Assembly (NCBI GenBank): GCA_963718235.1
Contig: CAVQYR010000001.1
Span: forward strand, 832,001 to 896,000
Source: an uncultured Actinomycetota bacterium
Lineage (GTDB): Bacteria; Actinomycetota; Actinomycetes; JAHEKZ01
Direction: 5' to 3'
DNA: 64,000 nt
Below, piece after piece: positions 8,086 to 35,316 of this stretch. Both the position numbers and the translations under genes were made by a program. The notes under the pieces were generated by a model. That model saw only the letters and a list, made by a program, of their open reading frames with translations, was not told where the DNA came from and did no database searches. Positions within the stretch are counted from its first letter, which is position 1, and each line of letters opens with the position of its first letter.

Positions 8086-9333
8086 GTGCGGCGGCGCTAC
8101 CTGCGCTCCACCCTGCTGATCGTGCTGGTGGGCATGTCGTTGCTCGCCGTGGTGATGGCGGTGGCGAGCAGCCGGGGGATCCGCGGTGAGGCCGAGGACC
8201 GGCTCGCCGCCGAGGCCGACCGGATCGCGACGACGGTCGGCACCCGGGTGGCCGCCGGGCTGCCGGTCGACCCCGACTTCGTCGACGAGCTGGTTCCTGC
8301 CGACCGATGGGTGCGTGTCACACTGACCGCCGGCCAGATGGTCGAAGCCGGTGAGCCGGTCGGTGCCGACGCGTTGTCGGCACGGGCGGCGGTGTCTCCG
8401 GCCGGTACCGGCTGGGTGTCCGTGCTGGAGAGCCCGGACCGGGTGCGCCAGAGCCAGCTGGTCTCGGCCCTGTCGATCCTGGCGATCGTGCTGGGCGTCG
8501 GTCTGCTGGCCACCGTCCTGGCGGTTCGCGAGTCGCGCCGACTGACCCGTCCGCTGGCCGACCTGGCCGACCGGGCCGCGCGGCTGGGGTCGGGGGACCT
8601 GCGGCCCAGCGGCCAGCGGTTCGGGGTGCCCGAGCTCGACCGGGTGGCCGAGGCGCTGGACGACAGTGCCGTCGAGCTGGGCGTCGCCGCCGAGGAGTCG
8701 CGCGCCCGGGTCGTCGACGCCTCCCACCAGCTGCGCACCCCGTTGACCGCGCTGTCGATCCGGCTGGAGGAGATCGGCCAGGCGCGTGACCTCGCTGCGA
8801 TCCAGGTCGAGGCGGGCGCGGCCCTCGAGCAGGTCGAGCGCCTGACCGGGGTCGTCGACGCGATGCTCGTCGCGTCCGGAGGCTCCGGCCGGGCCCGGCC
8901 GGAGACCGCCCTGGCGACCGTCCTGCGTCAGCAGGTGGGCGAGTGGTCGCCGTCCTACGCCGCGGTCGGTCGGGTACTGACCGCCGAGGGCCGCAGCGGT
9001 CTGGTCGTCCAGGGGTCACCCGGGGCGGTGAGCCAGATCCTGGCGACCCTGGTGGAGAACTCGCTGCTGCACGGGGCCGGGACCACGCGTCTCGTCGTGC
9101 GGCAGGCCGAGGGCGCGGTGGTGGTCGAGGTCGGTGACCAGGGGGACGGTGTGTCCGCCGCGTTGGCGCCGCACGTCTTCGAGCGATCGATCAGTGGTGG
9201 CGGCGGTAGCGGGGTGGGGCTGGCCGTCGCGCGGGCCATGGCGGAGTCGGTCGGAGGCCGGTTGGAGCTGACGACGCGCTCACCCGCCACGTTCTCGTTG
9301 TTCCTCCGACCGGTCAGCGGTTCCGTCCGCTGA
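8086..9333 (+). CDS. Membrane sensor histidine kinase (HAMP, HisKA, HATPase)
   Basis: Two TMs, SHQLRTPL H-box, LVENSLLHG N-box, DQGDG, GSGVGLA. Confidence 0.9.
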   Translation: MRRRYLRSTLLIVLVGMSLLAVVMAVASSRGIRGEAEDRLAAEADRIATTVGTRVAAGLPVDPDFVDELVPADRWVRVTLTAGQMVEAGEPVGADALSARAAVSPAGTGWVSVLESPDRVRQSQLVSALSILAIVLGVGLLATVLAVRESRRLTRPLADLADRAARLGSGDLRPSGQRFGVPELDRVAEALDDSAVELGVAAEESRARVVDASHQLRTPLTALSIRLEEIGQARDLAAIQVEAGAALEQVERLTGVVDAMLVASGGSGRARPETALATVLRQQVGEWSPSYAAVGRVLTAEGRSGLVVQGSPGAVSQILATLVENSLLHGAGTTRLVVRQAEGAVVVEVGDQGDGVSAALAPHVFERSISGGGGSGVGLAVARAMAESVGGRLELTTRSPATFSLFLRPVSGSVR

Positions 9334-9786
9334 CCGCTCGGGGTGGGGAAACACCCAGGTGCGGTACGCGACGAACCGGAACAGGGTGCCCAGGGCCACC
9401 CCCACGAGGTTCGCTGAGATGTTGTCCGCCAGCGGCCCCCGCAGGTCCAGGACGTAGCGGGACACCGCCAGCGGGAGCAAGGTGATGCCGAGCGCCACCG
9501 CGTTGACCCCGAGGAACATCGCGTACTCCCTGAACACACCGCGACGGTCCCGGTCCCGGAAGGTCCACTGCCGGTTGCCGCCGTAGGCCACGACGGTGGC
9601 CAGCACCCCCGCGATCGTCTTCGCGGTCAGCGGCTTGTCGTGCAGCGGCCCCTCGCCGCCGCCGAAGACCAGCAGGTTGTAGGTGCCGACGTCGACGACG
9701 TAGGCGATGATGCCGACGGTGCCGAACTTCGCCAGCTCTGCGGTCAACCGACGCAGCGGGGTCGTCGAACCGGGGGGCAGGCTCAC
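9280..9786 (-). CDS. GtrA-family membrane protein
   Basis: ELAKFGTVG, YGGNRQWTF, FRFVAYRTWVF; four TMs; divergent from purK. Confidence 0.88.
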   Translation of the reverse strand: MSLPPGSTTPLRRLTAELAKFGTVGIIAYVVDVGTYNLLVFGGGEGPLHDKPLTAKTIAGVLATVVAYGGNRQWTFRDRDRRGVFREYAMFLGVNAVALGITLLPLAVSRYVLDLRGPLADNISANLVGVALGTLFRFVAYRTWVFPHPERSADGTADRSEEQRERGG

Positions 9787-9880
9787 GAACGGTGAGCGGA
9801 CGGCGACGACATGGGCTCAGGCTATCGGGCGCCAAGGCTCGGTCGACCGCCGCTTTGGACGGCCCGGGTAGTCTGCGCCG

Positions 9881-11021
9881 GTGACGTTCCCCACGGTCGG
9901 TGTGGTCGGTGGCGGTCAGCTGGCGCGGATGATGCAGCCGGCGGCCGTGGCGTTGGGGGTCCGGCTCGTCGTGCTGGCCGACGTGGCCGACGACAGTGCG
10001 GCGCAGGTGGTCCCCGACGTCGTCGTCGGTGACTACCGCGACCGCTCGACCCTGGAGTCGTTCGCCTCGGGCTGTGACGTCGTGACCTTCGACCACGAGC
10101 ACGTCCCGGCCGAGCACCTGCGCGCGCTCGTGGCTGCGGGGTTCACCGTGCGCCCCGGGCCGGCGGCGCTGGCCCACGCCCAGGACAAGTCGGTGATGCG
10201 CGAGCGGCTCGGCGCGATGGGCGCCCCGGTCCCACGGTGGCGGACCGTCAAGGACGTGGCCGACGTCGTCGCGTTCGCCGAGGGCTCGAGCTGGCCGCTG
10301 GTGCTCAAGGCCACCCGGGGCGGCTACGACGGCAAGGGGGTGTGGGTCGTGGCCGACGCCGACGAGGCCGACTGGGTGCTCTCCCACGACCAGGTCCCCG
10401 GCTTCCTCGTCGAGGAGCGGGTGCCCTTCACCCGTGAGCTGGCCGCTTTGGTGGCCCGTAGTCCCAGCGGGCAGGCGGTGGCCTACCCCGTGGTCGAGAC
10501 CGTGCAGGTCGACGGCATCTGTCGGGAGGTCTACGCGCCCGCCCCCGGCCTCGACCCCGACCATGCCGTGGCGGCGCAGGAGGTCGCGCTGAGGATCGCT
10601 GGTGAGCTCGACGTGGTCGGTGTCCTCGCCGTCGAGCTGTTCGACACCCCGGCGGGGGTGCTCGTCAACGAGCTGGCGATGCGGCCGCACAACTCCGGGC
10701 ACTGGACGATCGACGGTTCGGTCACCAGCCAGTTCGAGAACCACCTGCGAGCCGTCCTCGACCTCCCGCTCGGTGACCCGTCGGTCACTCGCCCCGGTGA
10801 CGGTGATGGTGAACGTCCTCGGTGGCGACCTCCCGGACCTCTACCCCGCCTACCTGCACTGCATGGCCCGCGACCCCGGACTCAAGGTGCACATGTACGG
10901 CAAGGCGGTTCGCCCCGGTCGCAAGGTGGGGCACGTCACGGTGACCGGAGAACACGTCGACGCGTGCAAGGAGCGGGCCAGACATGCGGCGTCCTACCTG
11001 AGAGGCGACATCGATGAGTAG
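9881..11021 (+). CDS. purK: N5-carboxyaminoimidazole ribonucleotide synthase; frameshift near 10785-10795 (probable sequence error)
   Basis: [29 protein letters not shown] in frame 9881; conserved C-terminus ([22 protein letters not shown]) in frame 10602-11021. Confidence 0.92.
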
Positions 11022-11547
11022 CTCACCCGACCCGGCGTCGGTCGGCATCGTGATGGGCAGTGACTCCGACTGGCCGGTCATGGAGGCGGCGGCGCAGGTG
11101 CTCGACGAGTTCGACGTGGGCTACGACGTGGGGGTCGTGTCGGCGCACCGGATGCCGGTGGAGATGCTCGCGTACGGCGCCGAGGCGGTCGACCGGGGCC
11201 TGCGCGTGATCATCGCCGGGGCGGGCGGCGCGGCGCACCTCCCCGGGATGCTGGCCGCAGTCACGCCGCTGCCGGTCATCGGCGTCCCGGTGCCGCTCAA
11301 GAACCTCGACGGACTCGACTCGCTGCTGTCCATCGTGCAGATGCCGGCCGGTGTCCCGGTGGCCACCGTGGCGATCGGCAACGCGCGCAACGCTGGGCTG
11401 TTGGCGGTGCGGATGCTCGGCCTGGTCGACCAGACCCTTCAGGTGCGGATGCGGGAGTTCCAGGCCGCACTCAAGAACACCGCGGTCGAGAAGGGCGAGG
11501 CGCTGCAGCGTCGCCGCACCTCATCGACCGGTTTCACCGCTGGCTGA
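11014..11547 (+). CDS. purE: N5-CAIR mutase
   Basis: [42 protein letters not shown]. Confidence 0.97.
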
Positions 11548-11560
11548 CGCCGACCGCGTC

Positions 11561-12880
11561 TCAGGGGCGTCCCGGCGCGACGAACGTCCAGCCGGCCGCC
11601 CGCCACCGGTCGCGGTCCAGGCACAGCCGACCGTCGACCACGACCTGGCGCCGGACCACCTGGGCCACGAGTCGCGGGTCGAGGTCGCGGAACTCCCGCC
11701 ACTCGGTCAGGACGAGGACCGCGTCGACCTGCTCGAGGGCGGCCTGCGCTGAGTCCACGTAGACCAGGCTCGGGAACAGCGCCGAGGCGTTGGCGTTGGC
11801 CTGCGGGTCGTACACGCGGACGTCGGCTCCCTGCAGCTGCAGCCCCGCGGCGACGTTGAGGGCAGGGGAGTCGCGCACGTCGTCGCTCTCGGGTTTGAAG
11901 GCCGCACCGAGAACGGCGATCCGCTTGCCGAGCAGCGAGCCGTCGAGCGCCGCCTTGGTGAGCTCGACCATCCGCCCGCGGCGGCGCATGTTGATCTCGT
12001 CGACCTCCCGCAGGAAGGTGAGCGCCTGGTCGACGCCGAGCTCTCCGGCCCGCGCCATGAACGCCCGGATGTCCTTGGGCAGGCAGCCTCCCCCGAAGCC
12101 GAGGCCGGCGCGCAGGAACTGGCCACCGATCCGTGGGTCCAGGGCGAGCGCGTCGGACAGCTGGACGACGTCGGCCCCGGTCGCCTCGCACAGCTCGGCC
12201 ATGGCGTTGATGAACGAGATCTTGGTCGCCAGGAACGCGTTGGCCGAGACCTTGACCAGCTGGGCGGTCGCGAGGTCGGTGACGACGAGCGGAACGCCTT
12301 TCTCCAGCAGCGGTGCGTAGACGTCACGCAGCACCTGCTCGGCCTGCGCGCTGCCCACCCCGACGACGAGCCGGTCCGGGCGCAGCGTGTCGTCGACGGC
12401 GTGGCTCTCGCGCAGGAACTCCGGGTTCCAGGCGACCTCGGCGGTCGGTCCCGCGGGGGCGTGTGCGCTGACGTAGTCGGACAGCCGCTCGGCGGTCCCG
12501 ACCGGCACGGTCGACTTGCCGACCACGAGGCAGGGCCTGGTCAGTCGGGGTGCGAGGTGCTCGACCACGGAGTCGACGTACCGCATGTCCGCCGCGTACG
12601 ACCCGGGCTGCTGCGGGGTGCCGACGCACAGGAAGTGCACGTCGCCGAAATCGGCCACGTCGTCGTAGGACGTCGTGAACCGCAATCGCCCGGTGTCGAG
12701 GTTGCGCCGCAGGACGTCGGCCAGGCCCGGCTCGAAGAACGGCACCTCGCCGCGCTGCAGCGTCTCGATCTTGACCGGGTCGACGTCCATCCCCAGGACG
12801 TCGAACCCCAGCTCGGCCATGCATGCAGCGTGGGTCGCCCCCAGGTACCCGGTGCCGAGCACGGTCAGGCGCGGTGCCAC
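11561..12880 (-). CDS. ugd: UDP-glucose/GDP-mannose 6-dehydrogenase
   Basis: GTGYLG, KSTVPVG, NPEFLRE, GFGGGCLPKD, FKPESDDVRDSP. Confidence 0.93.
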   Translation of the reverse strand: MAPRLTVLGTGYLGATHAACMAELGFDVLGMDVDPVKIETLQRGEVPFFEPGLADVLRRNLDTGRLRFTTSYDDVADFGDVHFLCVGTPQQPGSYAADMRYVDSVVEHLAPRLTRPCLVVGKSTVPVGTAERLSDYVSAHAPAGPTAEVAWNPEFLRESHAVDDTLRPDRLVVGVGSAQAEQVLRDVYAPLLEKGVPLVVTDLATAQLVKVSANAFLATKISFINAMAELCEATGADVVQLSDALALDPRIGGQFLRAGLGFGGGCLPKDIRAFMARAGELGVDQALTFLREVDEINMRRRGRMVELTKAALDGSLLGKRIAVLGAAFKPESDDVRDSPALNVAAGLQLQGADVRVYDPQANANASALFPSLVYVDSAQAALEQVDAVLVLTEWREFRDLDPRLVAQVVRRQVVVDGRLCLDRDRWRAAGWTFVAPGRP

Positions 12881-12993
12881 GGGTCCTCCGGAGGTCGATG
12901 TCGTCGGCGCGATCAGGTTAGCCGAGCGGGCGTGCGCCTAGGCTGGCGCCGACATGTGCTGTCCCGGCGAGTCCGCGAGGAGTTCGACCTGTC

Positions 12994-13494
12994 GTGAGCC
13001 CAGAACCGGTTGCGTCATCGGCCGCACGCACGACGCTGAGTCGCATCATGACGTCGTTGGACGTCAACCTGCTCGGTACCGTGCACGGCGGTGTCGTGAT
13101 GAAGCTGGTCGACGACGTGGCAGGAGCCGCGGCCGCCCGGCACTCGCACGGAAGCGCAGTGACCGTGGCCATGGACGAGATGGTGTTCTTGCGCCCGGTC
13201 CGGATCGGTGACCTGATCCACGCGCACGCGCAGGTCAACTGGGCCGGTCGCACGTCGATGGAGGTCGGCGTCCGGGTCACCGCTGAACGATGGAACGAGA
13301 CCCAGCCGGCTGAGCACGTGGCGTCGGCCTACCTGGTGTTCGTCGCGGTCGACGAGGAGAACACTCCGCGCGAGGTGCCGCCGGTGGCACCGGAGACCGA
13401 CGTCGACCGCAACCGTTTCACCGAGGCCGAGATCCGCCGGGCGAACCGGCTCGCGCGGCGCGAGGAGATCAAGGCGCTGCGCAGCTCCCGCTGA
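12994..13494 (+). CDS. Acyl-CoA thioesterase (hotdog fold)
   Basis: NLLGTVHGG..MKLVD, GRTSMEVGV, YLVFVAVD. Confidence 0.9.
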   Translation: MSPEPVASSAARTTLSRIMTSLDVNLLGTVHGGVVMKLVDDVAGAAAARHSHGSAVTVAMDEMVFLRPVRIGDLIHAHAQVNWAGRTSMEVGVRVTAERWNETQPAEHVASAYLVFVAVDEENTPREVPPVAPETDVDRNRFTEAEIRRANRLARREEIKALRSSR

Positions 13495-13506
13495 GCCAAC
13501 GCACGG

Positions 13507-14929
13507 TCAGCCGCACACCTTGTCGGCCGCCGTCGTGGTGTCCACCTGGCTTTCCTGGGGGGCTGAGGTCTTGACCTGCTGGGGGGCGGCGTACTCGGTC
13601 CCGACGACGATCACGAAGGTGCCGCCCATTCCCGGAACCTCCTCGACCTCTGCGTCGGGGAACGCCGCCTGCACGGTCTTGAGGGACTCGCTCCACTCCG
13701 GGTCGTACCGGATGACCGTCGAGGTCACGTCGGTGGTCGTCCGCGTTGTCAGGGGAGGCCCCGATGGTGAACCCCACCGCCGCGAGGTCGCTGCTGGCCT
13801 GGCCGGCGAGCCCGGACACGGTGCTGCCGTTGAGCGCCTGGACGCTGATGTCGGACGGGGAGACGGTCGGTCGCCCGGCCCGCTTCTCCTTGACGACGGG
13901 AGCATCGGACTCCAGGGCGTCGAACACCGCGCTCGCCTTCGCCTTGTCCCAGCGGACCGCCGAGCCGGACGACGTGGAGTAGTCGACGTCGGAGAGCGGC
14001 ACCGTGAGGAAGCGGATGTCCTTGGGCTTGAGGCTCTGCAGGTCCGAGGCCAGGCCCATCAGCAGGTCGCGGTTCATGCCCTCGTCAGTGGTGACCGACG
14101 AGAGCATCGCCTTGAGGAACCGGTCGAGCTTCAGCGGGTTGAGCAGCACCCCGGCGCTGGTGGCCTGGTTGAACATCGCCCCGAGGAACTGCTGCTGACG
14201 CTGCATCCGGCCCAGGTCGGCGGTGGGGTCGATGTAGCGGGCGCGGACGAACGACAGCCCCATCTGCCCGTCGACGTGCGACCGACCGGCCGGGAGGACC
14301 AGGCCGCTTCGGCGGTCGTCGACGGCGTCGGGCAGGCACACGTCGACTCCGCCGAGGGCGTCGACCATGCGGATGACCCCGGCGAACCCGACCTCGACGT
14401 AGTGGTCGACGTCGACGCCCGTGGCGCCCTGCACGGTGCGGATCAGCAGCTCGGCGCCCCCGTAGGAGTACGCGGCGTTCAGCTTGTTCATCTGGGCCGG
14501 GTGCTTCTTGCCGGCGTCGTCGGTCCAGGCCGGGATGCGCACCCAGGAGTCACGGGGCAGGCTCACGACCGTCACGTCGCTGCGGTCGGCCGACAGGTGG
14601 ACCAGCATCATCGTGTCGGAACGCCGGCCGCCGAGGTGGCCGGTGTGCAGCATGCGCTGCTCTTCCTTGGTCAGCCCGTCACGGGAGTCAGAACCGGCCA
14701 CGAGCACCGTCAGCGGACCATCGGCGTCGCCGCCGCCGGCCAGGATGCCGCCGAGCCCGGGGATCCGGCCGATCTGTCCGTCGTAGTAGGTGGCGACGGC
14801 CCAGCCACCGATCGAGGTGAGGAAGATCACGCTCGCGGCGATGGTCGCCAGGGCGCGCAGGACCCGAGGACGAGCAGAAGTCTCACCGGTGGCTCGGGGG
14901 GAGAGCTCCGGGGGAAGGACGGTGCTCAT
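13507..14929 (-). CDS. LCP (LytR-CpsA-Psr) glycopolymer transferase with LytR_C domain; frameshift near 13740
   Basis: GSDSR, RSDTMML, SLPRD, KLNAAY, DLGRMQRQQ; C-terminus (VIRYDP...TAADKVCG) continues in frame 13507 and matches the paralogue at 25194. Confidence 0.9.
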
Positions 14930-15137: not shown

Positions 15138-16193
15138 CTAGCCGGAGCGCTTCTGGCTGCGGGCCAGCGCGATGATCGCGTCGACCGCGGCGGCGGACAC
15201 GTCGGCCTCGTCGGGAAGTGCCGGCTGTCTCGAGGGCGGGTCTGGTGTGCGAGCAGAAGTGGCCGTCTCCGATCTCAGGTCGTCGAGGTCTCCGACCACG
15301 GTCATGCCGAGCGAGACCAGCGAGGCCAGCGAGGCCACGATCTCCTCCGAGCGGTGGTGGGCCCACGGGAGCGCGGCGTCCGGGAGCACGACCCGGGCCT
15401 CGGACTCCCGACGGCTGGCCAGGATCGACTTGCTCAGCCCGGCGCGCAGGACCCGTCCGTACTCCCGTCGGGGCATCGACTCGTCACCGAGCCGCAGGTT
15501 GACCCGGCGCAGCAGCTCCGCGGAGGCGGCGCCCAACGACTCGTTCGCGGTCTGCACCGGCTCGTAGCGCCCGGCGTCGATGTCGAGGGCGCTCGCGAAG
15601 CGGCGCCACAGCGCCAGCGGGTCAGCCGACCTTCGGGGGAGGGTCACCACCGTGACGTGGTCCACGCCGACGACGTCGGACCACACCTTCAGGATCCGGG
15701 ACGTGTCGTGCTGCTCCCAGAAGCTGCGCCCCAGCGTGCTCTTTCGGGGGTGCTTGCTGGTGACCGAGTCGACGTAGTCGGCAAACGTCCAGGTGTGGCC
15801 GAACTGCAGCGACTCCTGCCACTGCGCCGGCACCACCCGAACCAGGTCGCGCACGGTGAGCACGACCCGGACGGTCCGAGCGCCCAGTGCGGCGACCGCC
15901 CGCGCGGCCTGCTCCGGGCGGGCCCGGACCAGGCTCTCCATCGAGATGACGGCGGCTGGCCCCTCGTAGGCGGCGATCTCGTCGACGAGCGCCTGCCATC
16001 TCCCGGCGAGCCGGCCGCTACCCTCGTCGCGGCGCCCGAGCATCTCCTGCGCCCCTCGCACCTGGTCGATCCGGCGCCCCGGGTGGAGCAACCCGTCGTC
16101 GGCGAGCTGCTTCTGGTGCTGCACCAACATGGCCTGCAGGTAGGTCGTACCCGTCTTGGGCTCCCCGACGTGCAGGTGGACCACTCCGGTCAT
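15138..16193 (-). CDS. Sulfotransferase-fold (P-loop) protein, paralogue 4
   Basis: HLHVGEPKTGTTYLQ, ISMESL, VRDLVRVVPAQWQE, NESLG..SAELLRRVN, VVGDLDDL. Confidence 0.78.
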   Translation of the reverse strand: MTGVVHLHVGEPKTGTTYLQAMLVQHQKQLADDGLLHPGRRIDQVRGAQEMLGRRDEGSGRLAGRWQALVDEIAAYEGPAAVISMESLVRARPEQAARAVAALGARTVRVVLTVRDLVRVVPAQWQESLQFGHTWTFADYVDSVTSKHPRKSTLGRSFWEQHDTSRILKVWSDVVGVDHVTVVTLPRRSADPLALWRRFASALDIDAGRYEPVQTANESLGAASAELLRRVNLRLGDESMPRREYGRVLRAGLSKSILASRRESEARVVLPDAALPWAHHRSEEIVASLASLVSLGMTVVGDLDDLRSETATSARTPDPPSRQPALPDEADVSAAAVDAIIALARSQKRSG

Positions 16194-17245
16194 GAGGTTC
16201 CCCGCGTCGAGCGCACGCGGGACAGATAGGCGCTCAGCGCCATGACCGCAGCATCACGAGCGGCAGCGGTCTCGACCCGGGAGTGCCCCGCCGGTCCGGT
16301 GTCGTCGGTGGACGGCACCAGCTCGTCGAGGTCGCCCACGACCCGGTAGCCACGGTCCCGCACCACCGATGCGACCTCGCGCCCGAGCTCGCCCGCCCAG
16401 TGCAGGGACTTCGAGTCGATCGACAGCGGCTGGGCGCTCTGGCCGGCCAAGACCGTCTCGGCGACGAAGCGCTTGACCTCGCTGCGGTACACCGGCCACT
16501 CGATCCCCAGCGTGGACTCGTGGGTGAGCGCCGCGTTCAGCCGGCGGACGACCTCTGCGGACGTGGCTCCCAACGAGACGTTGGTCTGAAGGACCTCCAG
16601 GTCCGCTCCGACGGGTGGGAGACCGACTGCGGCGGCGAACCGCTCCCACAGGAGCGACGGCGAGGAGCCTTTGCGCGGCACAGTGACCACCGTGATCTGC
16701 GCGGCGGGGACGTGCCGCTGCCAGTCGGCCAGAATGGCCGGGAGGTTCTGCCACCGCCAGAATCCCCGTCGCGTGCCGGGCGCCTCCGCCCAGGCCCGCC
16801 GAGCCCGGCGGAGGTACTGCCGTAGCTCCAGGGTGGATCCGTTCTTGAGGTTCTCCTGCCACACGGCCGGCAGCTGGCGGGCGAGGTCTCGAGCCGTCAC
16901 GACGATCCGCAGGTCGTCCGTCGGCAGGTCGGAGGCGATCGTGGCGATCTGCTCGGGTGTGGCAGCGGTGAAGAGCTCGTGGGAGATGAGGACGTCCGGC
17001 CCGCGCCAGGACTCGACGGCGTGGGCCAGCCGGTTCCAGGAGCCGTCGACCCGTGGGTCGCGGTACTCCTTGAACGCGCCGCAGACGTCTTGTGCCTCCA
17101 GGAAGTGGTCTCCGCGGAAGCCGGGGTACAGGAGACCCTGCTTCCGGAGCCACCGCCGGTTCTTGGCGGCGACCGCCTGCACGTACGTAGTGCCCGTCTT
17201 CGGTGCTCCGATGTGGAGGTGCACTGTGGGTCGGCGGGTGCTCAT
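16190..17245 (-). CDS. Sulfotransferase-fold (P-loop) protein, paralogue 3
   Basis: HLHIGAPKTGTTYVQ, ISHE, ARDLARQLPAVWQE, NVSLG; ATG 17245 overlaps the upstream stop. Confidence 0.8.
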   Translation of the reverse strand: MSTRRPTVHLHIGAPKTGTTYVQAVAAKNRRWLRKQGLLYPGFRGDHFLEAQDVCGAFKEYRDPRVDGSWNRLAHAVESWRGPDVLISHELFTAATPEQIATIASDLPTDDLRIVVTARDLARQLPAVWQENLKNGSTLELRQYLRRARRAWAEAPGTRRGFWRWQNLPAILADWQRHVPAAQITVVTVPRKGSSPSLLWERFAAAVGLPPVGADLEVLQTNVSLGATSAEVVRRLNAALTHESTLGIEWPVYRSEVKRFVAETVLAGQSAQPLSIDSKSLHWAGELGREVASVVRDRGYRVVGDLDELVPSTDDTGPAGHSRVETAAARDAAVMALSAYLSRVRSTRGTS

Positions 17246-18198
17246 CGGCGCGCCTGCCACTGCTGGGGCAGCCAGTGCTGACGGACCGAGTCGATGGTGG
17301 TCTTCAGCCGGGTGGTCATGGCTGAGTCCGCGCGGTGAGGCGACAAAGTGGCGGTGAGCTGCACCAGGGAGCGCAGGGCACCGACCGCGGCGTCCAGCTC
17401 GGCCTCGTCGGTGGCCGGGCCGGGGGCGGTGGGAGCGCCGGGGGTCAGCTCGTCGAGGCTGCCGTGGACGACGTAGCCGCACGCCTCGAGCCGCTCGCGG
17501 CCCTCGGCGCTCCAGTCGGCGACTGCCGGATGGGTCCACAGCGCTGTGTCGTCTGACGTCAGCCCCAGTCCCTCGACGAGTGCCTGGCGCACGGAGGGCT
17601 CGTCGGGGACGAAGCGTCCGTCGGTACCGGCGGCGGTCAAGACGTTCAGCGCCCGCAGCACCTCGGCCGCCGCGGGGCTCATCATCCGGTCGGCCAGCTC
17701 GATCGCAGGGCGTTGACGGGGGGACGCATCAGTGCGCACCTCGTCTTCGCGGTTCCCGGCCGCCTCGGTGAACCTCCGCCACAGCTCGTCCAGCCGTCCG
17801 GGCAGAGGGGCCGTGACGACGTGGACGTGGTCCCCGCCGATCCGCCGGTCCCAGGGTTGCAGGGTCACGACCGGGTCGATCGACCGCCACGGTCCGCTGA
17901 GGCTCTCGTGGTCGGCAGCCAGCCGGTCGACGAACTCCTCGAACGACGCGGTGCCGCCCCGAAGGAGCTCACCCTGCCAGAGCACCGGCAGCTGTCGGTG
18001 CAGGTCCCGGATGACGAGGACCGCGCGCCCCGGTGGCCCGGGGAGGCTGGTCAGGAGCCGCTCGACCTTGGTCTCGTCGCCCGCGAGGTCGGGCGCGGAG
18101 ACGATGCGTCCCGCCGACCCGCCGCTGGCCACCGGGCTCCCGGCGAGGAACGAGGTCTGGGTGTGCGAAGCGCCGACGTGAACGACGACCTCGGGCAC
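17242..18198 (-). CDS. Degenerate sulfotransferase-fold protein, paralogue 2
   Basis: VVHVGASHTQTSFL (P-loop eroded), IRDLHRQLPVLWQ, LWRRF, AEVLRALN, VHGSLDEL. Confidence 0.65.
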   Translation of the reverse strand: MPEVVVHVGASHTQTSFLAGSPVASGGSAGRIVSAPDLAGDETKVERLLTSLPGPPGRAVLVIRDLHRQLPVLWQGELLRGGTASFEEFVDRLAADHESLSGPWRSIDPVVTLQPWDRRIGGDHVHVVTAPLPGRLDELWRRFTEAAGNREDEVRTDASPRQRPAIELADRMMSPAAAEVLRALNVLTAAGTDGRFVPDEPSVRQALVEGLGLTSDDTALWTHPAVADWSAEGRERLEACGYVVHGSLDELTPGAPTAPGPATDEAELDAAVGALRSLVQLTATLSPHRADSAMTTRLKTTIDSVRQHWLPQQWQARR

Positions 18199-18253
18199 GA
18201 GTCCTCCTTGGGGCGAGCCCCGATCCTAGCCAGCGCGCGCCCGTGGCGTCGGG

Positions 18254-19459
18254 TCAGCCACGGCGTCGGTCTCGGACCGCGCGCAGCCGAGCCCCGACGG
18301 CGGCCGCGTACCGGTTGCGGCTCTCGAGGGCGACCAGGTGCGAACGCAGCCGAAGCGACGGCGCCAGAGAGTCCAGCTGGCGTCGCAGGCGCCCTTCCCA
18401 CCGGTGCCGGTCGTCGCGCATCCGGGCCATCTGGACCAGCAGCCCGCTCACTGCCGCAACGGCGGCGTCGAGCACCGCGGCGTCGTCGGGTGCCGGGTCT
18501 CCCGGCAGGGCTTCGTCCGGGACGACCAGGTCGTCGAGGTCACCGACGACGTCGCAGCCGCTGGCCCGGAGTCCGGAGATGGCGCTGCTGGCCCGGGCCA
18601 CGAGCCTGGCGTGCAGCTCGGGCGGCAGTTGAGGGCGCCCGGCGGGTGACCGGGCGCCGAGCACCTTGACGGCCAGGAGGTCGCGGGTCAGACCGGTCTG
18701 GTGCCACCGCGGGAAGTCGTCGGGCAGGGCCAGGTTGACCCGGCGCAGCAGCTCGGTCTCGGGCAGGCCCAGGGAGGTGTTCGCCTCGACCTCGAAGTCG
18801 GTGGCCGACGCGGGGTCGACCCCGATGATCGAGGCGAACCGGTTCCAGAGGTCGTTCTTGTCCGCTGCGGTCGGCGGCATCACCATGACGTGGATGTTCG
18901 CGCGCTCGACGTGGGTCGCCCAACGGTCGACGACGTCGACCGGGTCGTGCACGCTCCAGAACCAACGGCCAGGCCCCTTGGTCGCCGATCCCAGCACCTT
19001 GCGGGCCCACGCCTCGAAGGTCAGCGTCGAACGGTGCTTGACGAACTCCTGCCACTCCGAGGGCATCAGCCCGCCCAGGTTGCGGGTGGCGTAGAGGACG
19101 TGCACCTCGCGGGGAGCCAGCGAGTCGACCGCGCGCCGGACCTGGGCTGGGGTCAGTGAGGCGAGGTGCTCGTCGGAGATCACGACGTTCTCGGCGTCGC
19201 TGGAGGCGGCGATCTTGGCGAGGGTGTCCCAGGCTCCCGTCCAGTCCAGGCCGGGGTCGGCCGGGTCGAAGGGCAGGTCCCGGAGGTCGTGACCGGCCAG
19301 GTAGTGGTCGCGACGTCGGGTGCCGACGACGTGCAGGCCCACCGCCTCCAGGGCCTCCTGGTTGCGCCAGAGGACCCCCTGCAGGTACGTCGTGCCGGTC
19401 TTCGGCGCGCCCACGTGCAGGAAGGCCCGCCTGGTCGGGTCGTCGGCCACCGGACTCAC
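18254..19459 (-). CDS. Sulfotransferase-fold (P-loop) protein, paralogue 1
   Basis: FLHVGAPKTGTTYLQ, ISDEHL, TRNLGGLMPSEWQE, NTSLG..ETELLRRVN, VVGDLDDL; GTG 19459 overlaps the wzt stop. Confidence 0.8.
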   Translation of the reverse strand: MSPVADDPTRRAFLHVGAPKTGTTYLQGVLWRNQEALEAVGLHVVGTRRRDHYLAGHDLRDLPFDPADPGLDWTGAWDTLAKIAASSDAENVVISDEHLASLTPAQVRRAVDSLAPREVHVLYATRNLGGLMPSEWQEFVKHRSTLTFEAWARKVLGSATKGPGRWFWSVHDPVDVVDRWATHVERANIHVMVMPPTAADKNDLWNRFASIIGVDPASATDFEVEANTSLGLPETELLRRVNLALPDDFPRWHQTGLTRDLLAVKVLGARSPAGRPQLPPELHARLVARASSAISGLRASGCDVVGDLDDLVVPDEALPGDPAPDDAAVLDAAVAAVSGLLVQMARMRDDRHRWEGRLRRQLDSLAPSLRLRSHLVALESRNRYAAAVGARLRAVRDRRRG

Positions 19460-20193
19460 TCCTCTGGCTTCATGGGTCGCTGCTTGGTGCGTCGGTACTC
19501 CGCGATCCCCTCGTCGAGCGGCCCGTCGAACACGAGCTGGCCCTCGCGAAGCACCAGAGCTCGTTGGCACAGCCGGCGCAGGCACTTGGTGTTGTTCGTG
19601 GCGACGACGAGCGCATGCGAGTGGTCGGGGTAGCGGGCCATCCGGTCCAGGGCTGCGTCGCGCCTGGCCTGGCTGCCCAGGAGCAGGTCCTCGTCGGCGA
19701 GGAACACCGTCGGGGTGGTGAACAGGGCGATGGCGTAGCCCAGGCGGCGCCGGTCCAGCACCGCAAGGTCGCGCAGCTTGGTGTCGGCCCGGTCGGTCAG
19801 ATCCGCGTACTCGATCACCTCGTCGGCAGCCGCCACGGCGTCGTCCTGCCGCTCTCCGAGCAGGGCCAGGCCGTACACGACGTTGGAGCGCACGCTGAAG
19901 TCGTTGGACAGCCCGGCGCCGGCCGAGACCAAGCCGGTGGCTCGACCGCGCACCCGCACACGACCGTCGTCGGCGCGCAGCACGCCGCTCATCAGATGGA
20001 GCACCGTCGTACGTCCGGATTCCGGCTCGCCGAGGATGCCGACTCCCTCACCGGCTGCGACGGTGAAGGTGAGCCCGCGCACGGCGACGTGCAGCCGTCT
20101 CTGCTTGGCCGGCTTCCGACGCAGGCTGGTGAACCGTGCGGTCTCGAGGTCGGGGTACACCTTGCGGACCCGCTCGAAGGTCACGACTTCCAT
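19456..20193 (-). CDS. Wzt/TagH-like ABC transporter nucleotide-binding protein with degenerate catalytic motifs
   Basis: Wzt-like layout (AVRGLTFTV..GE.VGILG, G.V.VRG, LC.RALVL.EGQLVFDG) but Walker A is GEPESGRTT, no SGG/SSGM signature, H-switch VATNN. Confidence 0.82.
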   Translation of the reverse strand: MEVVTFERVRKVYPDLETARFTSLRRKPAKQRRLHVAVRGLTFTVAAGEGVGILGEPESGRTTVLHLMSGVLRADDGRVRVRGRATGLVSAGAGLSNDFSVRSNVVYGLALLGERQDDAVAAADEVIEYADLTDRADTKLRDLAVLDRRRLGYAIALFTTPTVFLADEDLLLGSQARRDAALDRMARYPDHSHALVVATNNTKCLRRLCQRALVLREGQLVFDGPLDEGIAEYRRTKQRPMKPEE

Positions 20194-21066
20194 GTGCCCC
20201 TCAGTACGAGCCGGTGGGAGTAGCGGTGGACCACGGCCAGGCCGATGAGCAGCGTCACCAGCGAGATCACGATGGACAGTCCGAGTGCGGCGCCGGGGAT
20301 CTCGATGTCGGCCGCCTGGCTGGCTGACACCGTGGGTGCCCAGAAGGTCTCGCGCAGGCCCATCATGGCGATGGTCAGCGGGTTGGCCAGGAAGAGGGTG
20401 TACAGCGGACCGTCGCCCAGGGTCTCGGTGACGAGGTCGAGCGGGTAGAGCACCGGGCTGATCCAGTGGGTCATCGTGGCGACCAGCTCGACCCCGAAGG
20501 CCACGTCGCGGACGTAGGTGTTCCCGACGCTGAGGATCAGACCGAGCCCGACCAGGAAGATGGTGACCAGGAGGATGCCGCCGACGGCGTAGGGGACACC
20601 GACCAGGTGGTTGGGTCGCCAGCCGCTGAAGGCGGCCACCACGAGGAGGACGATGGTGGCCGGGCCGAGCCGCAGGATCTGGGCCAGGACCGCGGTCATC
20701 GGAACGAGCTCGCGGGGGAGGTTGACCCGCCGCAGGAGCGAGGTCGACCGGGCCATCGACTTGGTCCCGCTCTTCATTGCGGCGTTGAAGTACTGCACCA
20801 TGATCACGCCGCAGAAGACATAGATCGCGAAGTTGTCGACGCGTTCGCCTAGCCCGAGGACGACGCCCACGATGACCAGGTACATCAAGAACCTCGTGAC
20901 CGGCCTGGCGAACTCCCAGAAGACCCCGCCGAGCAAGGTCCCCTGGTAGCGCTCCCCGCGCTCGACCCGTACGAGGTGCCACAGCAGTCGGGGTCGACGC
21001 AGGGCGGCGATCAAGCCGCCGGTGCGCCAGGGCTCCCGCCAGGCGGGGGTGTCGACGGAGGCCTGA

Positions 21067-21077
<11 letters not shown>
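20181..21077 (-). CDS. ABC-2 type polysaccharide export permease (Wzm/TagG-like)
   Basis: RYQGTLLG..W...P, LLRRVNLPRE, RDV, SPVLYP, ANPL; six TMs. Confidence 0.88.
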
Positions 21078-24227
<3,150 letters not shown>

Positions 24228-25187
24228 TCAGCGGTCGTGCAGTGCAGAGGTGCCGGTGGGAACCCAGCGCGAACGGCGGATCCGGCGTGACTCCTGCCAG
24301 CCCTTGAGCAGGGCGCCGCTCCCCTTGAGCGTGTGCTCGACGTAGACCAGCCTGACCTCCTCCTTGGCGAAGGTGAGGGCAGTTCCCAGCGCGAAGCCGA
24401 CCGGCCGGTAGTGGCCCAGGTGCTTCAGGTAGTGGGCCATGTAGCCACGGTTGCGCATGACGTGGAACCGGAAGAGGTCCGAGGCATCGTTGAGGTGGCG
24501 CACGGCCAGCGACATCTGCCGTTGCTCGCGCTGCCGCTTCAGCGCGAAGTGGTCGACGTACACGACCTTGGTCACGCGAGAGGCCATCAACGCGTAGACG
24601 GCGTCGTCCCAGGTGATGAAGAAGCGTGGGTCGGGCGGACCGATCTGGCTGACCACGTCACGACTCACGAGCATTCCCTCGAAAACCCCCGAGTTGGTCT
24701 CGAAGACCTCCTCGCCGTCGGCGAACGGGTCCTTCAGGTAGGGCAGTGGGATACCGAGGGTCTCGTTGATCCGGGGCTGCCAGAAGAAGGGGCCTCCGTG
24801 GAAGTCGACCCTTCGACCGTGGATGCACCCCGACTCCCCTGCGTGGCGTAGCAGCCCTTCCAGGCCGTCCGGCAGGGCCGTGACGTCATCATCCATCAGC
24901 CAGAACCAGTCGTGGCCGTCGTTGTACGCCGCCACCACGCCGGCGTTGAACCCGCCGCTGCCACCGGTGTTCTCGGTCAGGTACAGCCGATGGACCCGAT
25001 CGACGTCGCCGTACTCGGCGTCGAGGAACTCCCGGGTGCCGTCGGTGCTGGCGTTGTCGACCACGTAGACCGCATCGAGCGGACGGGTCTGCTCGAGCAG
25101 GGTGGGAAGCAGCTCCTCGAGGTAGTCCTTGCGGTTGTACGTGACGACGACGGCCGCCACGGACCAACGGGAGGTCTCCTCAGCCAC
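24228..25187 (-). CDS. GT2 glycosyltransferase (GlfT1-like)
   Basis: VVVTYNR, VVDNASTDGT, NTGGSGGF, WLMDDD, FFITWDD. Confidence 0.88.
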   Translation of the reverse strand: MAEETSRWSVAAVVVTYNRKDYLEELLPTLLEQTRPLDAVYVVDNASTDGTREFLDAEYGDVDRVHRLYLTENTGGSGGFNAGVVAAYNDGHDWFWLMDDDVTALPDGLEGLLRHAGESGCIHGRRVDFHGGPFFWQPRINETLGIPLPYLKDPFADGEEVFETNSGVFEGMLVSRDVVSQIGPPDPRFFITWDDAVYALMASRVTKVVYVDHFALKRQREQRQMSLAVRHLNDASDLFRFHVMRNRGYMAHYLKHLGHYRPVGFALGTALTFAKEEVRLVYVEHTLKGSGALLKGWQESRRIRRSRWVPTGTSALHDR

Positions 25188-25193
25188 GGCGGG

Positions 25194-26636
25194 TCATCCG
25201 CAGATGTTCTCGTCGGCCGTGCGCACGCCGTCGCCGAGGTCGCGCGGGGTGCGCACGACGACCTCGTCGGCTCCTGGCCAGTCGTCGCCGACGACGACCT
25301 CGACGACCGAACCGAGGCCGGAGGCAGTGACCCGGGTGGCGTAGTCGAGGGCCGCGGAGACGGTGCGGGCGGAGTCCTCGGCGTACGCGGGGTCGTAGCG
25401 CACCACCGTGGTCGTGAACTTCTTGCTCTCGGCGTTGTCGACGCCGACCACGTCGTAGCCCAGGGCGACCAGCTCCTCGGCTGCGGCGCTGGCGGCGCCG
25501 TTCTTGCCTGACCCGTTCAGGACCCGGACCGAGATGGTCGACGGGTCGACCCTCAGCGGCTTGCCGTCGATGACCGTCGGCTTTGCGGTGGGTGGTGGGT
25601 AGGGGTCGTCGTTGCGGATGGCCGACCACAGGGCGTCGGTGCGCTCGGTGTCCCAGACGACGGTGTTCGGGTCGTCGGGGTTCGGGACCCACGGCGTGGT
25701 GACGAAGGTGATGTCCTTGGGGGGGATGCTGCGTACCTGCTCAGCGAGCTTGCGCAGGGCGTTCAGGCTGGCCAGCTGCGGGTCGGTCGTCACCGACTTC
25801 GTCGCGGCGTCCAGGAAGCGAACGAGCTTCACCGGGTTGAGCAGGGTGCCCGAGCTTCGGGCCTTCTCGACGACCGAGCTCATGAAGGCCTGCTGTCGGT
25901 CGATCCGGCTGATGTCACTGCCGTTGCCGATGTAGCGCGCCCGGACGAACGCCAGTGCCTGGTCGCCCCTCACGGTCGAGATGCCGGCCGGCAGGTCGAG
26001 CCTGCTCTTCTTCTCGTAGACGGCCTCGTTGAGGCAGACGTCGATCCCGCCCAGTGCATCGACCATGCCCTGGAACCCGCGGAAGTCGACCACCGCGAAG
26101 TGGTCGATGAAGACGTCGGTGAGGCTCTCGACGGTCTTGATGGTGCACCCCGGCCCACCGATCGAGAACGCAGCGTTGAACCGGGTCGTCTGCGCCGGGG
26201 AGCTCCCGCTCTCCGTCTTGCACTCGGGGATGTCCACCACGGTGTCGCGCGGGATGCTGACCACGGTCGCCGTCTTGCGGTCGGCCGGCAGGTGGACCAG
26301 GAGCGTGGTGTCCGACCGCGCGCCGGTGACCACCGAGCCGAAGTCGTCACCCTGGCCCTCGCGGGTGTCCGAGCCCATCACCAGGATGTTGAGCGGCTCC
26401 TCGGCCCCCTCCGACCGGGCGGCCTGGGTGGGGCGGTCGCTGCCGACGATCTCGGGGGTGAACACGTCGATCTCGCCGATGTTGCCGTCGAGCTTCTTGT
26501 AGATGACGAACGCGGCGATGCCGCCGCCGACGAACAGGAGCACGACGACCACGCCGAGGATCAGCGCGGTCCGGCGCAGGAGCGGGTGCCGCGAGGTGCG
26601 GGCGGCCGGCTCCGGTGCACCTGGTTCGGGCGTCAT
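25194..26636 (-). CDS. LCP family protein with LytR_C domain
   Basis: NILVMGSDTR, RSDT, SIPRD, FNAAF, DISRIDRQQ, VRVLNGSG. Confidence 0.93.
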   Translation of the reverse strand: MTPEPGAPEPAARTSRHPLLRRTALILGVVVVLLFVGGGIAAFVIYKKLDGNIGEIDVFTPEIVGSDRPTQAARSEGAEEPLNILVMGSDTREGQGDDFGSVVTGARSDTTLLVHLPADRKTATVVSIPRDTVVDIPECKTESGSSPAQTTRFNAAFSIGGPGCTIKTVESLTDVFIDHFAVVDFRGFQGMVDALGGIDVCLNEAVYEKKSRLDLPAGISTVRGDQALAFVRARYIGNGSDISRIDRQQAFMSSVVEKARSSGTLLNPVKLVRFLDAATKSVTTDPQLASLNALRKLAEQVRSIPPKDITFVTTPWVPNPDDPNTVVWDTERTDALWSAIRNDDPYPPPTAKPTVIDGKPLRVDPSTISVRVLNGSGKNGAASAAAEELVALGYDVVGVDNAESKKFTTTVVRYDPAYAEDSARTVSAALDYATRVTASGLGSVVEVVVGDDWPGADEVVVRTPRDLGDGVRTADENICG

Positions 26637-27489: not shown

Positions 27490-27671
27490 GGCGCAAGGGT
27501 AGGTTGGCCAGGGTTGGTCCACGGGGGTGGTCTACGGGTCGGTCCACGGGTTCAGGACCCGGGCGGCCCGGCCGATGCTCCAAGGGTCGTTCGTCGGGCT
27601 AGGCGTTCGACACGGTCCGGCTCCTCGCTCCTTTCCTCGCTGCTCCTGCTCGGTCCTCCCCTCGCAGAAAG

Positions 27672-30305: not shown

Positions 30306-30395
30306 GCCGGCTGCGGCCCCCGGGGGGCGGAACGTCTGGGACTGGTGGCACGCCTGTGACTCAGGTGACGGGAGGAACCTGCCGACGGGGTAGGA

Positions 30396-35094: not shown

Positions 35095-35294
35095 AGGACC
35101 TCCGGTTGGCGACGAGTTCGTGCAGAGGAGGTTGATCGCCCTCATCGCGTCGCACCCCCGGCGCGGTTCTGACCGCCGGTTCGCGTCGCACCCTTCGCGC
35201 CGGCAGATCCGGACGCCGCTTCTCGTTGGCCTGGCGCCCACCAGTTCAGCTGTCTGAACCAGTGGCTCGCCGGCCCCTCTCGATCAACACCGTC

Positions 35295-35316
35295 ACTCTA
35301 GGACGGGGGTCCGACA
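35295..35316 (-). promoter_or_regulatory. PafBC / RecA-NDp-type DNA-damage promoter
   Basis: Minus strand reads TGTCGG-ACCCCCGTCC-TAGAGT, i.e. TGTCGG-N10-TA-N3-T, upstream of the DUF222-HNH gene. Confidence 0.75.

Follow-up and report, generated by a model that had tools for sequence, protein, structure and literature searches.

The window analysed here is a stretch of 64,000 nucleotides from an uncultured Actinomycetota bacterium. Its minus strand carries a gene cluster in the order LCP–GT2–glf–glfT2–wzm–wzt, followed head to tail by four paralogous genes, which we call P1 to P4, and by a second LCP gene (Table 1). The four paralogues and their homologs are the main subject of this analysis. 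Their predicted sulfotransferase fold and their association with galactan genes, described below, suggest that this bacterial group makes an undescribed sulfated wall sugar polymer. In a window of ~72% G+C, the cluster genes show third-position G+C of the coding type (0.88–0.91 in the paralogues where measured). An earlier, sequence-only reading of the window had described four consecutive open reading frames (ORFs) at 15138–19459, and both these coordinates and the overlap of the first start with the wzt stop proved right. Its statement that the genes mostly overlap by 4 nt holds for wzt/P1, where the GTG start of P1 overlaps the wzt stop as GTGA, and for P2/P3 and P3/P4, which overlap as ATGA; it does not hold for P1 and P2, which are separated by 55 nt containing a strong AAGGAGGA site 6 nt before the GTG of P2.

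Table 1. Genes of the cluster and degenerate Wzt-like domains (window coordinates unless a locus is named; 3′-PB, 3′-phosphate-binding motif; NBD, nucleotide-binding domain)
Feature	Coordinates	Strand	Basis
LCP (LytR-CpsA-Psr) ligase joining glycopolymer to peptidoglycan, opening the cluster	25194..26636	-	Pfam LytR_cpsA_psr 1.6e-48, LytR_C 9.7e-17
GT2 glycosyltransferase, candidate primer or GlfT1-like	24228..25187	-	Pfam Glycos_transf_2 2e-25
UDP-galactopyranose mutase Glf	23007..24179	-	Pfam GLF 1.2e-80
GlfT2-like galactofuranosyltransferase (polymerase)	21067..23010	-	Pfam GlfT2_domain3 1e-45, Glft2_N 6.8e-35
Wzm-like ABC-2 permease	20181..21077	-	Pfam ABC2_membrane 4.7e-8; NCBIfam galactan_ABC_perm 1.7e-7, far below cut-off
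Wzt-like nucleotide-binding protein, degenerate ATPase motifs	19456..20202	-	Pfam ABC_tran, 46.6 bits only
P1, sulfotransferase-fold paralogue, complete motifs, basic C-terminal tail	18254..19459	-	alignment, family profile
P2, degenerate paralogue (pseudo-enzyme)	17242..18198	-	alignment, model
P3, sulfotransferase-fold paralogue: PKTGTT, ISHE, RDLARQLPAVWQE, Ala at 3′-PB Ser position	16190..17245	-	
P4, sulfotransferase-fold paralogue: GEPKTGTT, ISME, RDLVRVVPAQWQE	15138..16193	-	
Second LCP ligase, last gene of the cluster	13469..14929	-	Pfam LytR_cpsA_psr 3.5e-48
Degenerate Wzt-like NBDs	19456-20202; L111:11104-12438; L042/L120; L131:1-460	- (window)	

P1–P4 are true paralogues. P2, P3 and P4 are each 26–35% identical to P1, 34 alignment columns are invariant across the four, and a profile of the family matches each of them in the genome with E-values from 4e-55 to 2e-138. 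The shared motifs quoted in the sequence-only reading are present as described, their P2 versions being degenerate. HxGxPKTGTTY occurs in P1, P3 and P4, where the IS.E motif reads ISDE, ISHE and ISME, respectively. The corresponding P2 segments, which remained unaligned to the profile and were read from the four-paralogue alignment instead, are HVGASHTQTSF and VSAPD. R[DN]L....P..WQE is found in all four proteins, with the last E changed to G in P2; N.SLG..E..RR.N and VVGDLD.L are found in P1, P3 and P4. The loss of the PKTGTT loop and the internal shortening of P2 had been noticed correctly: P2 has neither the P-loop Lys nor the Glu of the S-x-E motif, and is ~60 residues short in the stretch that leads from the P-loop to the second strand. 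P1 has the complete set, namely PKTGTT, ISDEHL and RNL..MPSEWQE with the 3′-PB Ser. The 3′-PB Arg is kept in all four paralogues. Eight residues further on, only P1 retains the Ser, just as had been stated, with Ala in P3 and P4 and Val in P2.

When 73 family members from this genome and the loci of 20 relatives were aligned, the P-loop Lys and the S-x-E Glu were both kept in 71; the two exceptions are P2 and L122_5467, which is without the Lys. The 3′-PB Arg is kept in nearly all members, including those of the Ala type. The Ser eight residues after it is kept in the P1-type clade and in some stand-alone copies, and is Ala in the P3, P4 and 'AMK/AFK' types.

This actinobacterial family is large and lacks any Pfam or NCBIfam model. 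A word-indexed search with P3 (8000 candidates scored) yielded 1937 proteins at E ≤ 1e-3. None of the 120 matches listed has a Pfam domain, and the named sources among them read 'hypothetical protein', save one UniRef name beginning 'Sulfotransferase fam...'. A profile search of 1.84 billion cluster representatives (clusters at 50% identity) retrieved 20008 sequences at E ≤ 1e-3, 6498 at ≤ 1e-10 and 2437 at ≤ 1e-30. The nearest ESM-Atlas clusters are unnamed and belong to Actinomycetota; among those with a name, a sulfotransferase cluster comes nearest (score 0.93).

The fold assignment comes from structure models. The AlphaFold model of P3, built from an alignment of 54 sequences, has a pLDDT (predicted local confidence) of 93.7. 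Foldseek returned six matches to it at E ≤ 1e-3, all sulfotransferases (3rnl, NDST1, the sulfotransferase domain of an olefin synthase and 3-OST-3), headed by 3rnl at 3.2e-5. In VIA-align, P3 matched 1nst, the N-sulfotransferase domain for heparan sulfate, with Z 16.1 and a root-mean-square deviation of 3.9 Å over 232 residues. Z was 15.5–16.0 for 3-O-sulfotransferases (16.0 for 1t8t), 15.6 for 3rnl and ~10–12 for cytosolic sulfotransferases (SULTs) and antibiotic sulfotransferases. From these Foldseek and VIA-align scores it follows that a sulfotransferase fold, a single α/β domain built on a central parallel sheet, is well supported at the level of the models, and specifically one of the polysaccharide-type branch. 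This agrees with the fold proposed from the motifs, and extends to P2, whose model reaches Z 12.9. In the P3 model, HxGxPKTGTT lies between strand 7–11 and helix 19–28, and T-A-R-D stands at the end of strand 111–118, leading into helix 121–134; by their positions we take these to be the superfamily's elements for binding the 5′-phosphosulfate (5′-PSB) and the 3′-phosphate (3′-PB). The S-x-E Glu lies at the end of strand 84–88. Judging by this position and by the motifs of heparan-sulfate sulfotransferases, it is probably the counterpart of their catalytic Glu. Within the genome, hhalign aligned the family profile with a Pfam-positive sulfotransferase (C2:187938-188729) at E 2e-4 and a probability of 46.8%, placing Lys on Lys, R-D on R-D and the family Ala127 on the Ser of the canonical enzyme. 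Designed repeat proteins (4D2) that topped a profile search of PDB sequences were discarded as spurious, the match running via the RDLARQ..WQE helix, and P4 alone gave only chance matches against PDB sequences.

The sequence-only reading had allowed phosphorylation in place of sulfation and had proposed a fold comparison with kinases. That comparison puts sulfotransferases on top: all 50 VIA-align entries listed for P3 are sulfotransferases, with no kinase among them, and adenylate kinases reach only Z ≤ 7.9 over ~130 residues against the P2 model. The loop itself reads G-A-P-K-T-G-T-T, not Walker A GxxxxGK[ST]. The phosphorylation alternative is not supported.

Genes for the synthesis of 3′-phosphoadenosine 5′-phosphosulfate (PAPS) are absent from the window, as had been noted; they lie elsewhere in the same genome. 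The only APS_kinase match in the window, ORF 35293-36198 (-), is weak (25.9 bits) and was rejected as a real cysC, its best Pfam match being AAA_33, a generic P-loop kinase. At C1:1.907-1.912 Mb, adjoining a WbaP-type initiating sugar transferase, the genome encodes cysC (APS_kinase 1e-56), cysN (TIGR02034 9.5e-171), cysD (7.7e-143) and a cysQ-like phosphatase. In this region (C1:1905282-1911731; L004), cysQ-cysD-cysN is convergent with cysC, which has a long N-terminal extension. Since the only PF01507 match of the genome is cysD, and neither cysH nor a NIR_SIR sulfite reductase was found in an assembly estimated to be 95% complete, where absence is no proof, the gene content indicates that activated sulfate seems to be made for sulfation and not for assimilation.

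Of 301 genomes sampled from the class, 75 have the family and 229 an APS (adenosine 5′-phosphosulfate) kinase. The kinase accompanies 70 of the 75 family-positive and 159 of the 226 family-negative genomes, a co-occurrence that lends modest support because kin are not independent. The adjacency of cys genes is more telling. At three loci (L045, L049 and L052), a family gene has cysD-cysN(C) directly upstream on its own strand; cysC is divergently adjacent to a family gene in L108 and L109, and cysD-cysN in L125.

The coupling to glycan export genes read from this one window recurs in many genomes as a glf-glfT2-wzm-wzt association. We compiled 72 loci from contigs of one genome per species, fetched as the best matches to P3-like peptide patterns and coming from lineages such as Actinomadura, Spirillospora, Thermomonospora, Nocardioidaceae, Jatrophihabitans and Haloechinothrix. 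Homologs of GlfT2 are encoded within 10 kb of family genes at 31 of these loci, of the GT2 at 30, of Glf at 22, of Wzt at 20 and of Wzm at 18. GlfT2 also occurs in 15 of the 20 relatives' loci, hand-picked from the best genome matches. In a genome of the same genus (G181) the order is identical, LCP-GT2-glf-glfT2-wzm-wzt-four family genes-LCP, an orthologue of the first LCP gene holding the same place and the position of the second being likewise occupied. Within the window's own taxonomic family, glfT2 is directly followed by two to five family genes. PF19320, whose sole match in the present genome is the glfT2-like gene of the cluster, occurs in 53 of the 301 genomes; the family is found in 30 of these 53, compared with 45 of the 248 GlfT2-negative genomes. 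Among the matches listed, glfT2 and a family gene are no more than 10 kb apart in at least 19 of the 30 genomes with both (one of them the unpublished G014). The genome tallies include the unpublished G014, G006, G042, G031, G262, G029 and G035, and no conclusion rests on these alone.

Several paralogue types could be distinguished by motif signatures and a midpoint-rooted FastTree phylogeny; because the tree has neither support values nor a proper root, clade membership is indicative only. The P1 type, which has ISDEHL, RNL..L.PSEWQEYVKHR and, at the C terminus, a long basic tail, always adjoins glfT2 or wzt. The P3 type is typified by ISHE and PAVWQE.LKNG, and the P4 type, with orthologues in relatives, by GEPKTGTT and ISME. 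Among the further types are two whose P-loop Pro is replaced by M or F, and one that lies divergently beside the GT2 gene. The clades of the P1, P3 and P4 types span genera, and the arrays hold 2–8 paralogues per locus. Where this genome has P1, P2, P3 and P4, the array of G181 consists of P1, two AMK types and P4. Recent tandem duplication was rejected as the origin of the arrays, the paralogue types being older than the genera. As genomes combine the types differently, the arrays appear from these sequences to be assemblies of ancient, specialised paralogues. By analogy with the heparan-sulfate enzymes, such ancient types may correspond to different positions or contexts of sulfation.

P2 is the degenerate member of the array. 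Its model (pLDDT 80.4, weak over residues 10–30) still matches the sulfotransferase fold, with Z 12.8–12.9 to 3-OST-5, NST and 3-OST-3. Its closest sampled relatives are ~33% identical, apart from two metagenomic sequences, P0122 (69%) and L131 (61%), which carry the identical dead loop and deletions. A metagenome scan with P2 alone found nothing, and one with the P2+P0122 alignment found a single 2.7-kb contig. The order in L131 is degenerate wzt–P1–P2, with the same wzt/P1 junction as here. Relative to L131, the Nei-Gojobori ratios of nonsynonymous to synonymous change (dN/dS) are 0.155 for P1, 0.50 for P2 and 0.415 for the Wzt fragment, which points to relaxed but not neutral evolution of P2. 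Its intact reading frame alone says little, because high G+C makes open frames cheap. The recurrence of the dead N-terminus and deletions at 69% and 61% identity, along with the dN/dS of 0.5, led us to drop the idea of a decaying pseudogene. These comparisons support P2 as a catalytically dead, conserved paralogue.

The suggestion that the array includes non-catalytic partner subunits gained ground from two sides. Predicted P1+P2 complexes (15-row alignment for P1, 2-row for P2) scored 0.81, 0.83 and 0.81, the best control reaching 0.39. Of 157 solved complexes, 116 reach the mark used, as do 2 of 215 mismatched pairs, counts that are only rough here since custom alignments were used. Contacts agreed to at least 61% between the runs, with partner pLDDT of at least 74. 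The predicted interface is quasi-symmetric and is formed in both chains by the 'E..RR.N' helix and the C-terminal helix (P1 residues 237–262 and 325–348; P2 residues 180–207 and 263–286). These elements are conserved family-wide, and the C-terminal helix lies outside the region that aligns to solved sulfotransferases, which in the model ends near residue 312. Because close cousins of a true partner can also pass, the complex model supports dimerisation via this surface, whereas it does not tell which protein P2 pairs with. The second line of support is gene fusion. Two family domains occur in one chain in 16 of the 150 best-scoring library representatives. Seven of these 16 (P0133-P0137, P0150 and P0220) combine a domain in which Lys and R-D are intact with one that has lost both, and three of the seven show an internal deletion like that of P2. 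Such fusions of an intact with a degenerate domain lend independent, 'Rosetta-stone' support to a pairing of enzyme and pseudo-enzyme. The two-domain proteins (P0129-P0138, P0150, P0171, P0187, P0194 and P0220) are ~700–850 aa long.

The Wzt-like protein preceding P1 is itself unusual. It has 248 aa and consists of the NBD only, with Pfam ABC_tran at residues 42–171 and no carbohydrate-binding domain. In its Walker A, GEPESGRTT, K has become R; LAVLD stands in place of the signature YSSGM, the H-loop His is Asn, and Walker B (FLADE) is kept. This degenerate state is seen in three of 22 aligned homologs beside glfT2, the other 19 being canonical; it is common to the same-genus orthologue and one distant lineage (two aligned rows). 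The gene stays open and conserved (dN/dS ~0.4 against L131). The protein pair does not reach the cut-offs of NCBIfam NF050108/NF050109 (78.9 bits against 400 and 31 against 380), and a search of the genome found no other Wzm-like permease and no canonical Wzt.

The bare NBD bears on the sequence-only proposal that the array caps the galactan. ABC-transporter-type glycan pathways often use terminal caps, an example being the phospho-methyl cap added by WbdD in Escherichia coli O9a, and the array here follows a pathway of this type and is translationally coupled to wzt. A sulfate at the non-reducing end might likewise halt GlfT2 and license export. However, Wzt lacks a C-terminal cap-binding module, and 2–8 paralogues per locus, of several ancient types, are more than one cap requires. 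In most genomes of the same taxonomic family, no wzm/wzt was found in the stretch around the junction of glfT2 and the array, nor was a kinase, a methyltransferase or a coiled-coil ruler seen. Capping or termination of the chain end by the array thus has no support, and we consider it very improbable; the arrays fit decoration along the chain better.

The reading we favor, and hold to be reasonably probable, is PAPS-dependent O-sulfation of a lipid-linked galactofuranan by dimeric sulfotransferases at the cytoplasmic face, before export and LCP attachment. P1–P4 would be cytoplasmic, co-transcribed with the galactan genes and partly translationally coupled to them. Glf would provide UDP-galactofuranose, the GT2 and GlfT2 would polymerise the lipid-linked galactofuranan, Wzm/Wzt would move the polymer across the membrane and the two LCP proteins would attach it to peptidoglycan. 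PAPS would come from the cysDN and cysC products, and cysQ would clear the product 3′-phosphoadenosine 5′-phosphate. The intact paralogues (P1 certainly, P3 and P4 probably) would use PAPS to O-sulfate galactofuranose or side sugars while the lipid-linked chain, still growing or already complete, is on the cytoplasmic face; probably every ancient type has its own position or sequence context. Dimers would form through the family-specific surface of the 'E..RR.N' and C-terminal helices, with P2 as the conserved, catalytically dead partner of an active subunit, and the sulfated polymer would then be exported and ligated to the wall. Of this scheme, the analysis shows that the genes are paralogues, what their fold, motif states and synteny are, that the PAPS pathway is present and that the dead copy is conserved; PAPS use, galactan as the acceptor, a regiospecific division of labour and heterodimer function are the parts that we infer.

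A number of results weigh against this proposal. With regard to the enzymes, P1–P3 have no Pfam match, NCBIfam gave nothing relevant for any of the four, and P4 matches Pfam Sulfotransfer_3 at 1.3e-4 and 22.7 bits, below the cut-off of 27. The family profile reaches 3rnl among PDB sequences only at E 1.1, and hhalign of the P1-type profile with the genome's canonical sulfotransferase covers 30 columns of the P-loop only, at a probability of 0.8%. The P1–P2 model may reflect merely a generic homodimer-like surface common to all paralogues. As to the donor, APS kinase is common anyway, and a second glycan locus of the genome, of the Wzx type, holds at least one canonical sulfotransferase that could explain the PAPS pathway. 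Five family-positive genomes have no APS kinase match; they are mostly fragmented, but G076 is 97% complete in 60 contigs. The 3′-PB Ser position is Ala in P3, P4 and at least 90% of the P3-centred alignment. In a study of Stam10, an actinomycete sugar sulfotransferase, the S117A substitution abolished activity (PMC13291958), and because of this and of their Ala, P3 and P4 may, by analogy, bind PAPS poorly or not at all.

The last points would also fit a sulfotransferase fold that carries out no PAPS-dependent sulfate transfer, the proteins using another donor or chemistry or acting as glycan-binding or chaperone subunits of an assembly and export machine. No curated sulfotransferase model passed, degenerate copies are tolerated and conserved, most members have the equivalent of the change that inactivated Stam10, and the fairly complete G076 shows no APS kinase. 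Yet the combined retention of the P-loop Lys, the 3′-PB Arg and the S-x-E Glu in nearly all members, the Ala type included, is hard to explain without catalysis, and the P1 type keeps the Ser. In addition, cysDN(C) or cysC shares the operon with family genes or is divergently adjacent at the six loci given above, Walker A is missing, and kinases stay at Z ≤ ~8 as compared with 13–16 for sulfotransferases. We regard loss of the transfer activity as quite unlikely.

Other contrary results concern the acceptor. GlfT2 is not encoded within 10 kb at 41 of the 72 loci; moreover, the 72-locus and 20-locus sets are biased, and since they overlap (sharing at least two loci) and come from related organisms, their counts are not independent. 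Of the nine family copies in this genome, three (C2:173314, C2:732298 and C1:382995) have no galactan genes nearby. Because of these three copies and the 41 loci, the family therefore has further acceptors too. Of the three single copies, one lies by an EamA transporter and a fasciclin-domain protein, one between the genes of a 2-hydroxyacid dehydrogenase and a methyltransferase (Methyltransf_4), and one by a carboxylesterase and an ion channel. It might then be argued that the proteins are real PAPS-dependent sulfotransferases for something other than galactofuranan (be it the linkage unit, some other glycan, a glycolipid, a precursor of peptidoglycan or a small molecule), and that their position beside glfT2 reflects envelope co-regulation only. 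The non-glycan contexts of the three copies agree with this, as do the family's occurrence in GlfT2-negative genomes (45 of 248) and a tandem pair at C2:327818-329980 (L006:8818-10980) that lies by a GT4 glycosyltransferase and an FkbM-type methyltransferase, not by glfT2. Against it, a P1-type orthologue is the immediate neighbor of glfT2/wzt in all listed relatives' loci with GlfT2, the 4-nt wzt/P1 overlap of this genome has its counterpart in the junction of L131, and the nearest structures are polysaccharide sulfotransferases (Z 16, compared with ~10 for small-molecule enzymes). We consider a different acceptor for the array unlikely.

A bolder form of the favored sulfation reading, which we find doubtful, would be dense, position-specific sulfation of the peptidoglycan-linked galactofuranan. 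This would give a phosphate-free anionic polymer replacing teichoic acids in many non-mycolate Actinomycetes, with the arrays working as obligate enzyme/pseudo-enzyme dimers, here docked on a Wzm/Wzt pair that does not hydrolyse ATP, and with export driven or gated otherwise. As no TagF-type glycerophosphotransferase (PF04464) was found in the 95%-complete genome, classical teichoic acid polymerases seem to be missing.

The surroundings of the cluster contain further envelope-related and other genes. On one side (window 9280-13494) are a GtrA-family membrane protein (9280-9786, -), purK/purE (+), a UDP-glucose dehydrogenase (11561-12880, -), which could provide uronic acid for the cluster's polymer or for a different one, and a 4HBT thioesterase (12994-13494, +). 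On the other side, directly upstream of the cluster and divergent from it (27603-31709, +), lie two peptidoglycan remodelling genes, the first for a protein of 900 aa that has Amidase_2 and FlgD_ig-like domains and the next for one with a SpoIID domain. The genome's second glycan locus (C2:187000-197000; L136), of lower third-position G+C, encodes a GT2, a Sulfotransfer_3/1 protein (L136:4938-5729), a Wzx-like flippase, CBM96 and Laminin_G_3; it may be a separately acquired cluster for a sulfated exopolysaccharide (EPS).

Sulfated polysaccharides are regarded as rare in bacteria. If sulfation of the galactofuranan is true, a whole class of unrecognised sulfated wall polymers in actinomycetes would be predicted, since the family is large and wired into the galactan pathway of many lineages. 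This would have consequences for wall charge, for phage and antibiotic binding and for chemotaxonomy, and would add new enzymes to the polysaccharide sulfotransferases, along with a naturally occurring enzyme/pseudo-enzyme system for study. Our literature search, covering sources other than subscription journals, found no paper on the family or on a sulfated actinobacterial wall galactan, which is one more point on the side of caution. Sulfated capsules are reported in marine Vibrio and Cobetia. According to a 2026 Actinoplanes study, cyanobacteria are the only known source of sulfated polysaccharides, and proof that actinomycetes have them is still to come (PMC13390465).

Several known systems resemble parts of the one described here. 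The published description of wps-1 of Actinoplanes missouriensis is that of an actinomycete glycan cluster with two predicted sulfotransferases (WpsB and WpsH), one annotated as heparan-sulfate type, and with an unverified product (PMC13390465). Compared by that description, wps-1 differs in being a Wzx/Wzy-dependent EPS cluster with InterPro-recognised enzymes, without paralogue arrays or dead copies (PMC13390465). Sam10/Stam10, the saccharomicin fucose 2-O-sulfotransferase, is likewise from an actinomycete, PAPS-dependent and active on an assembled oligosaccharide, with a cysC homolog in its cluster (PMC13291958). Unlike the family, it has R13, S16 and S17 in its 5′-PSB, a natural-product acceptor and an essential 3′-PB Ser (PMC13291958). 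Bacterial Sulfotransfer_3/Sulfotransfer_1 proteins are related through 3rnl of Alicyclobacillus, the best Foldseek match, and through the genome's own C2:187938-188729, which aligns with the motifs in register. They are shorter (~250–260 aa, compared with ~350–400 aa), whereas the family falls below the Pfam/NCBIfam thresholds and has motifs of its own, N.SLG..E..RR.N and VVGDLD.L.

Two further parallels concern the pathway and the fold. The mycobacterial galactan pathway (Glf, GlfT1, GlfT2, Wzm/Wzt and Lcp1) has the same gene set and order logic as the present cluster. It differs in that Wzm/Wzt here fall far short of the equivalog cut-offs and Wzt has degenerate motifs. The sulfotransferase-like family is present in only one of the 12 sampled genomes whose GlfT2 matches are strongest (E ~1e-83 to 1e-90), all of a single taxonomic family. 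Heparan-sulfate sulfotransferases act on polysaccharide acceptors with a Glu-type base. NDST1 (1nst) and 3-OST-1/3/5 (1zrh, 1t8t and 3bd9) are the best structural neighbors, with Z 15.5–16.1 over 226–234 residues for P3 and 12.3–12.9 for P2. Their likeness to the family includes the Lys of the 'PKxGTT' P-loop and the R-D...(S)x(Y/W)xQ 3′-PB helix. The family is set apart from them by an identity of only 10–14%, a cytoplasmic location without a membrane anchor, the mostly Ala state of the 3′-PB Ser position, an extra C-terminal helix, and arrays in which intact enzymes stand beside dead copies.

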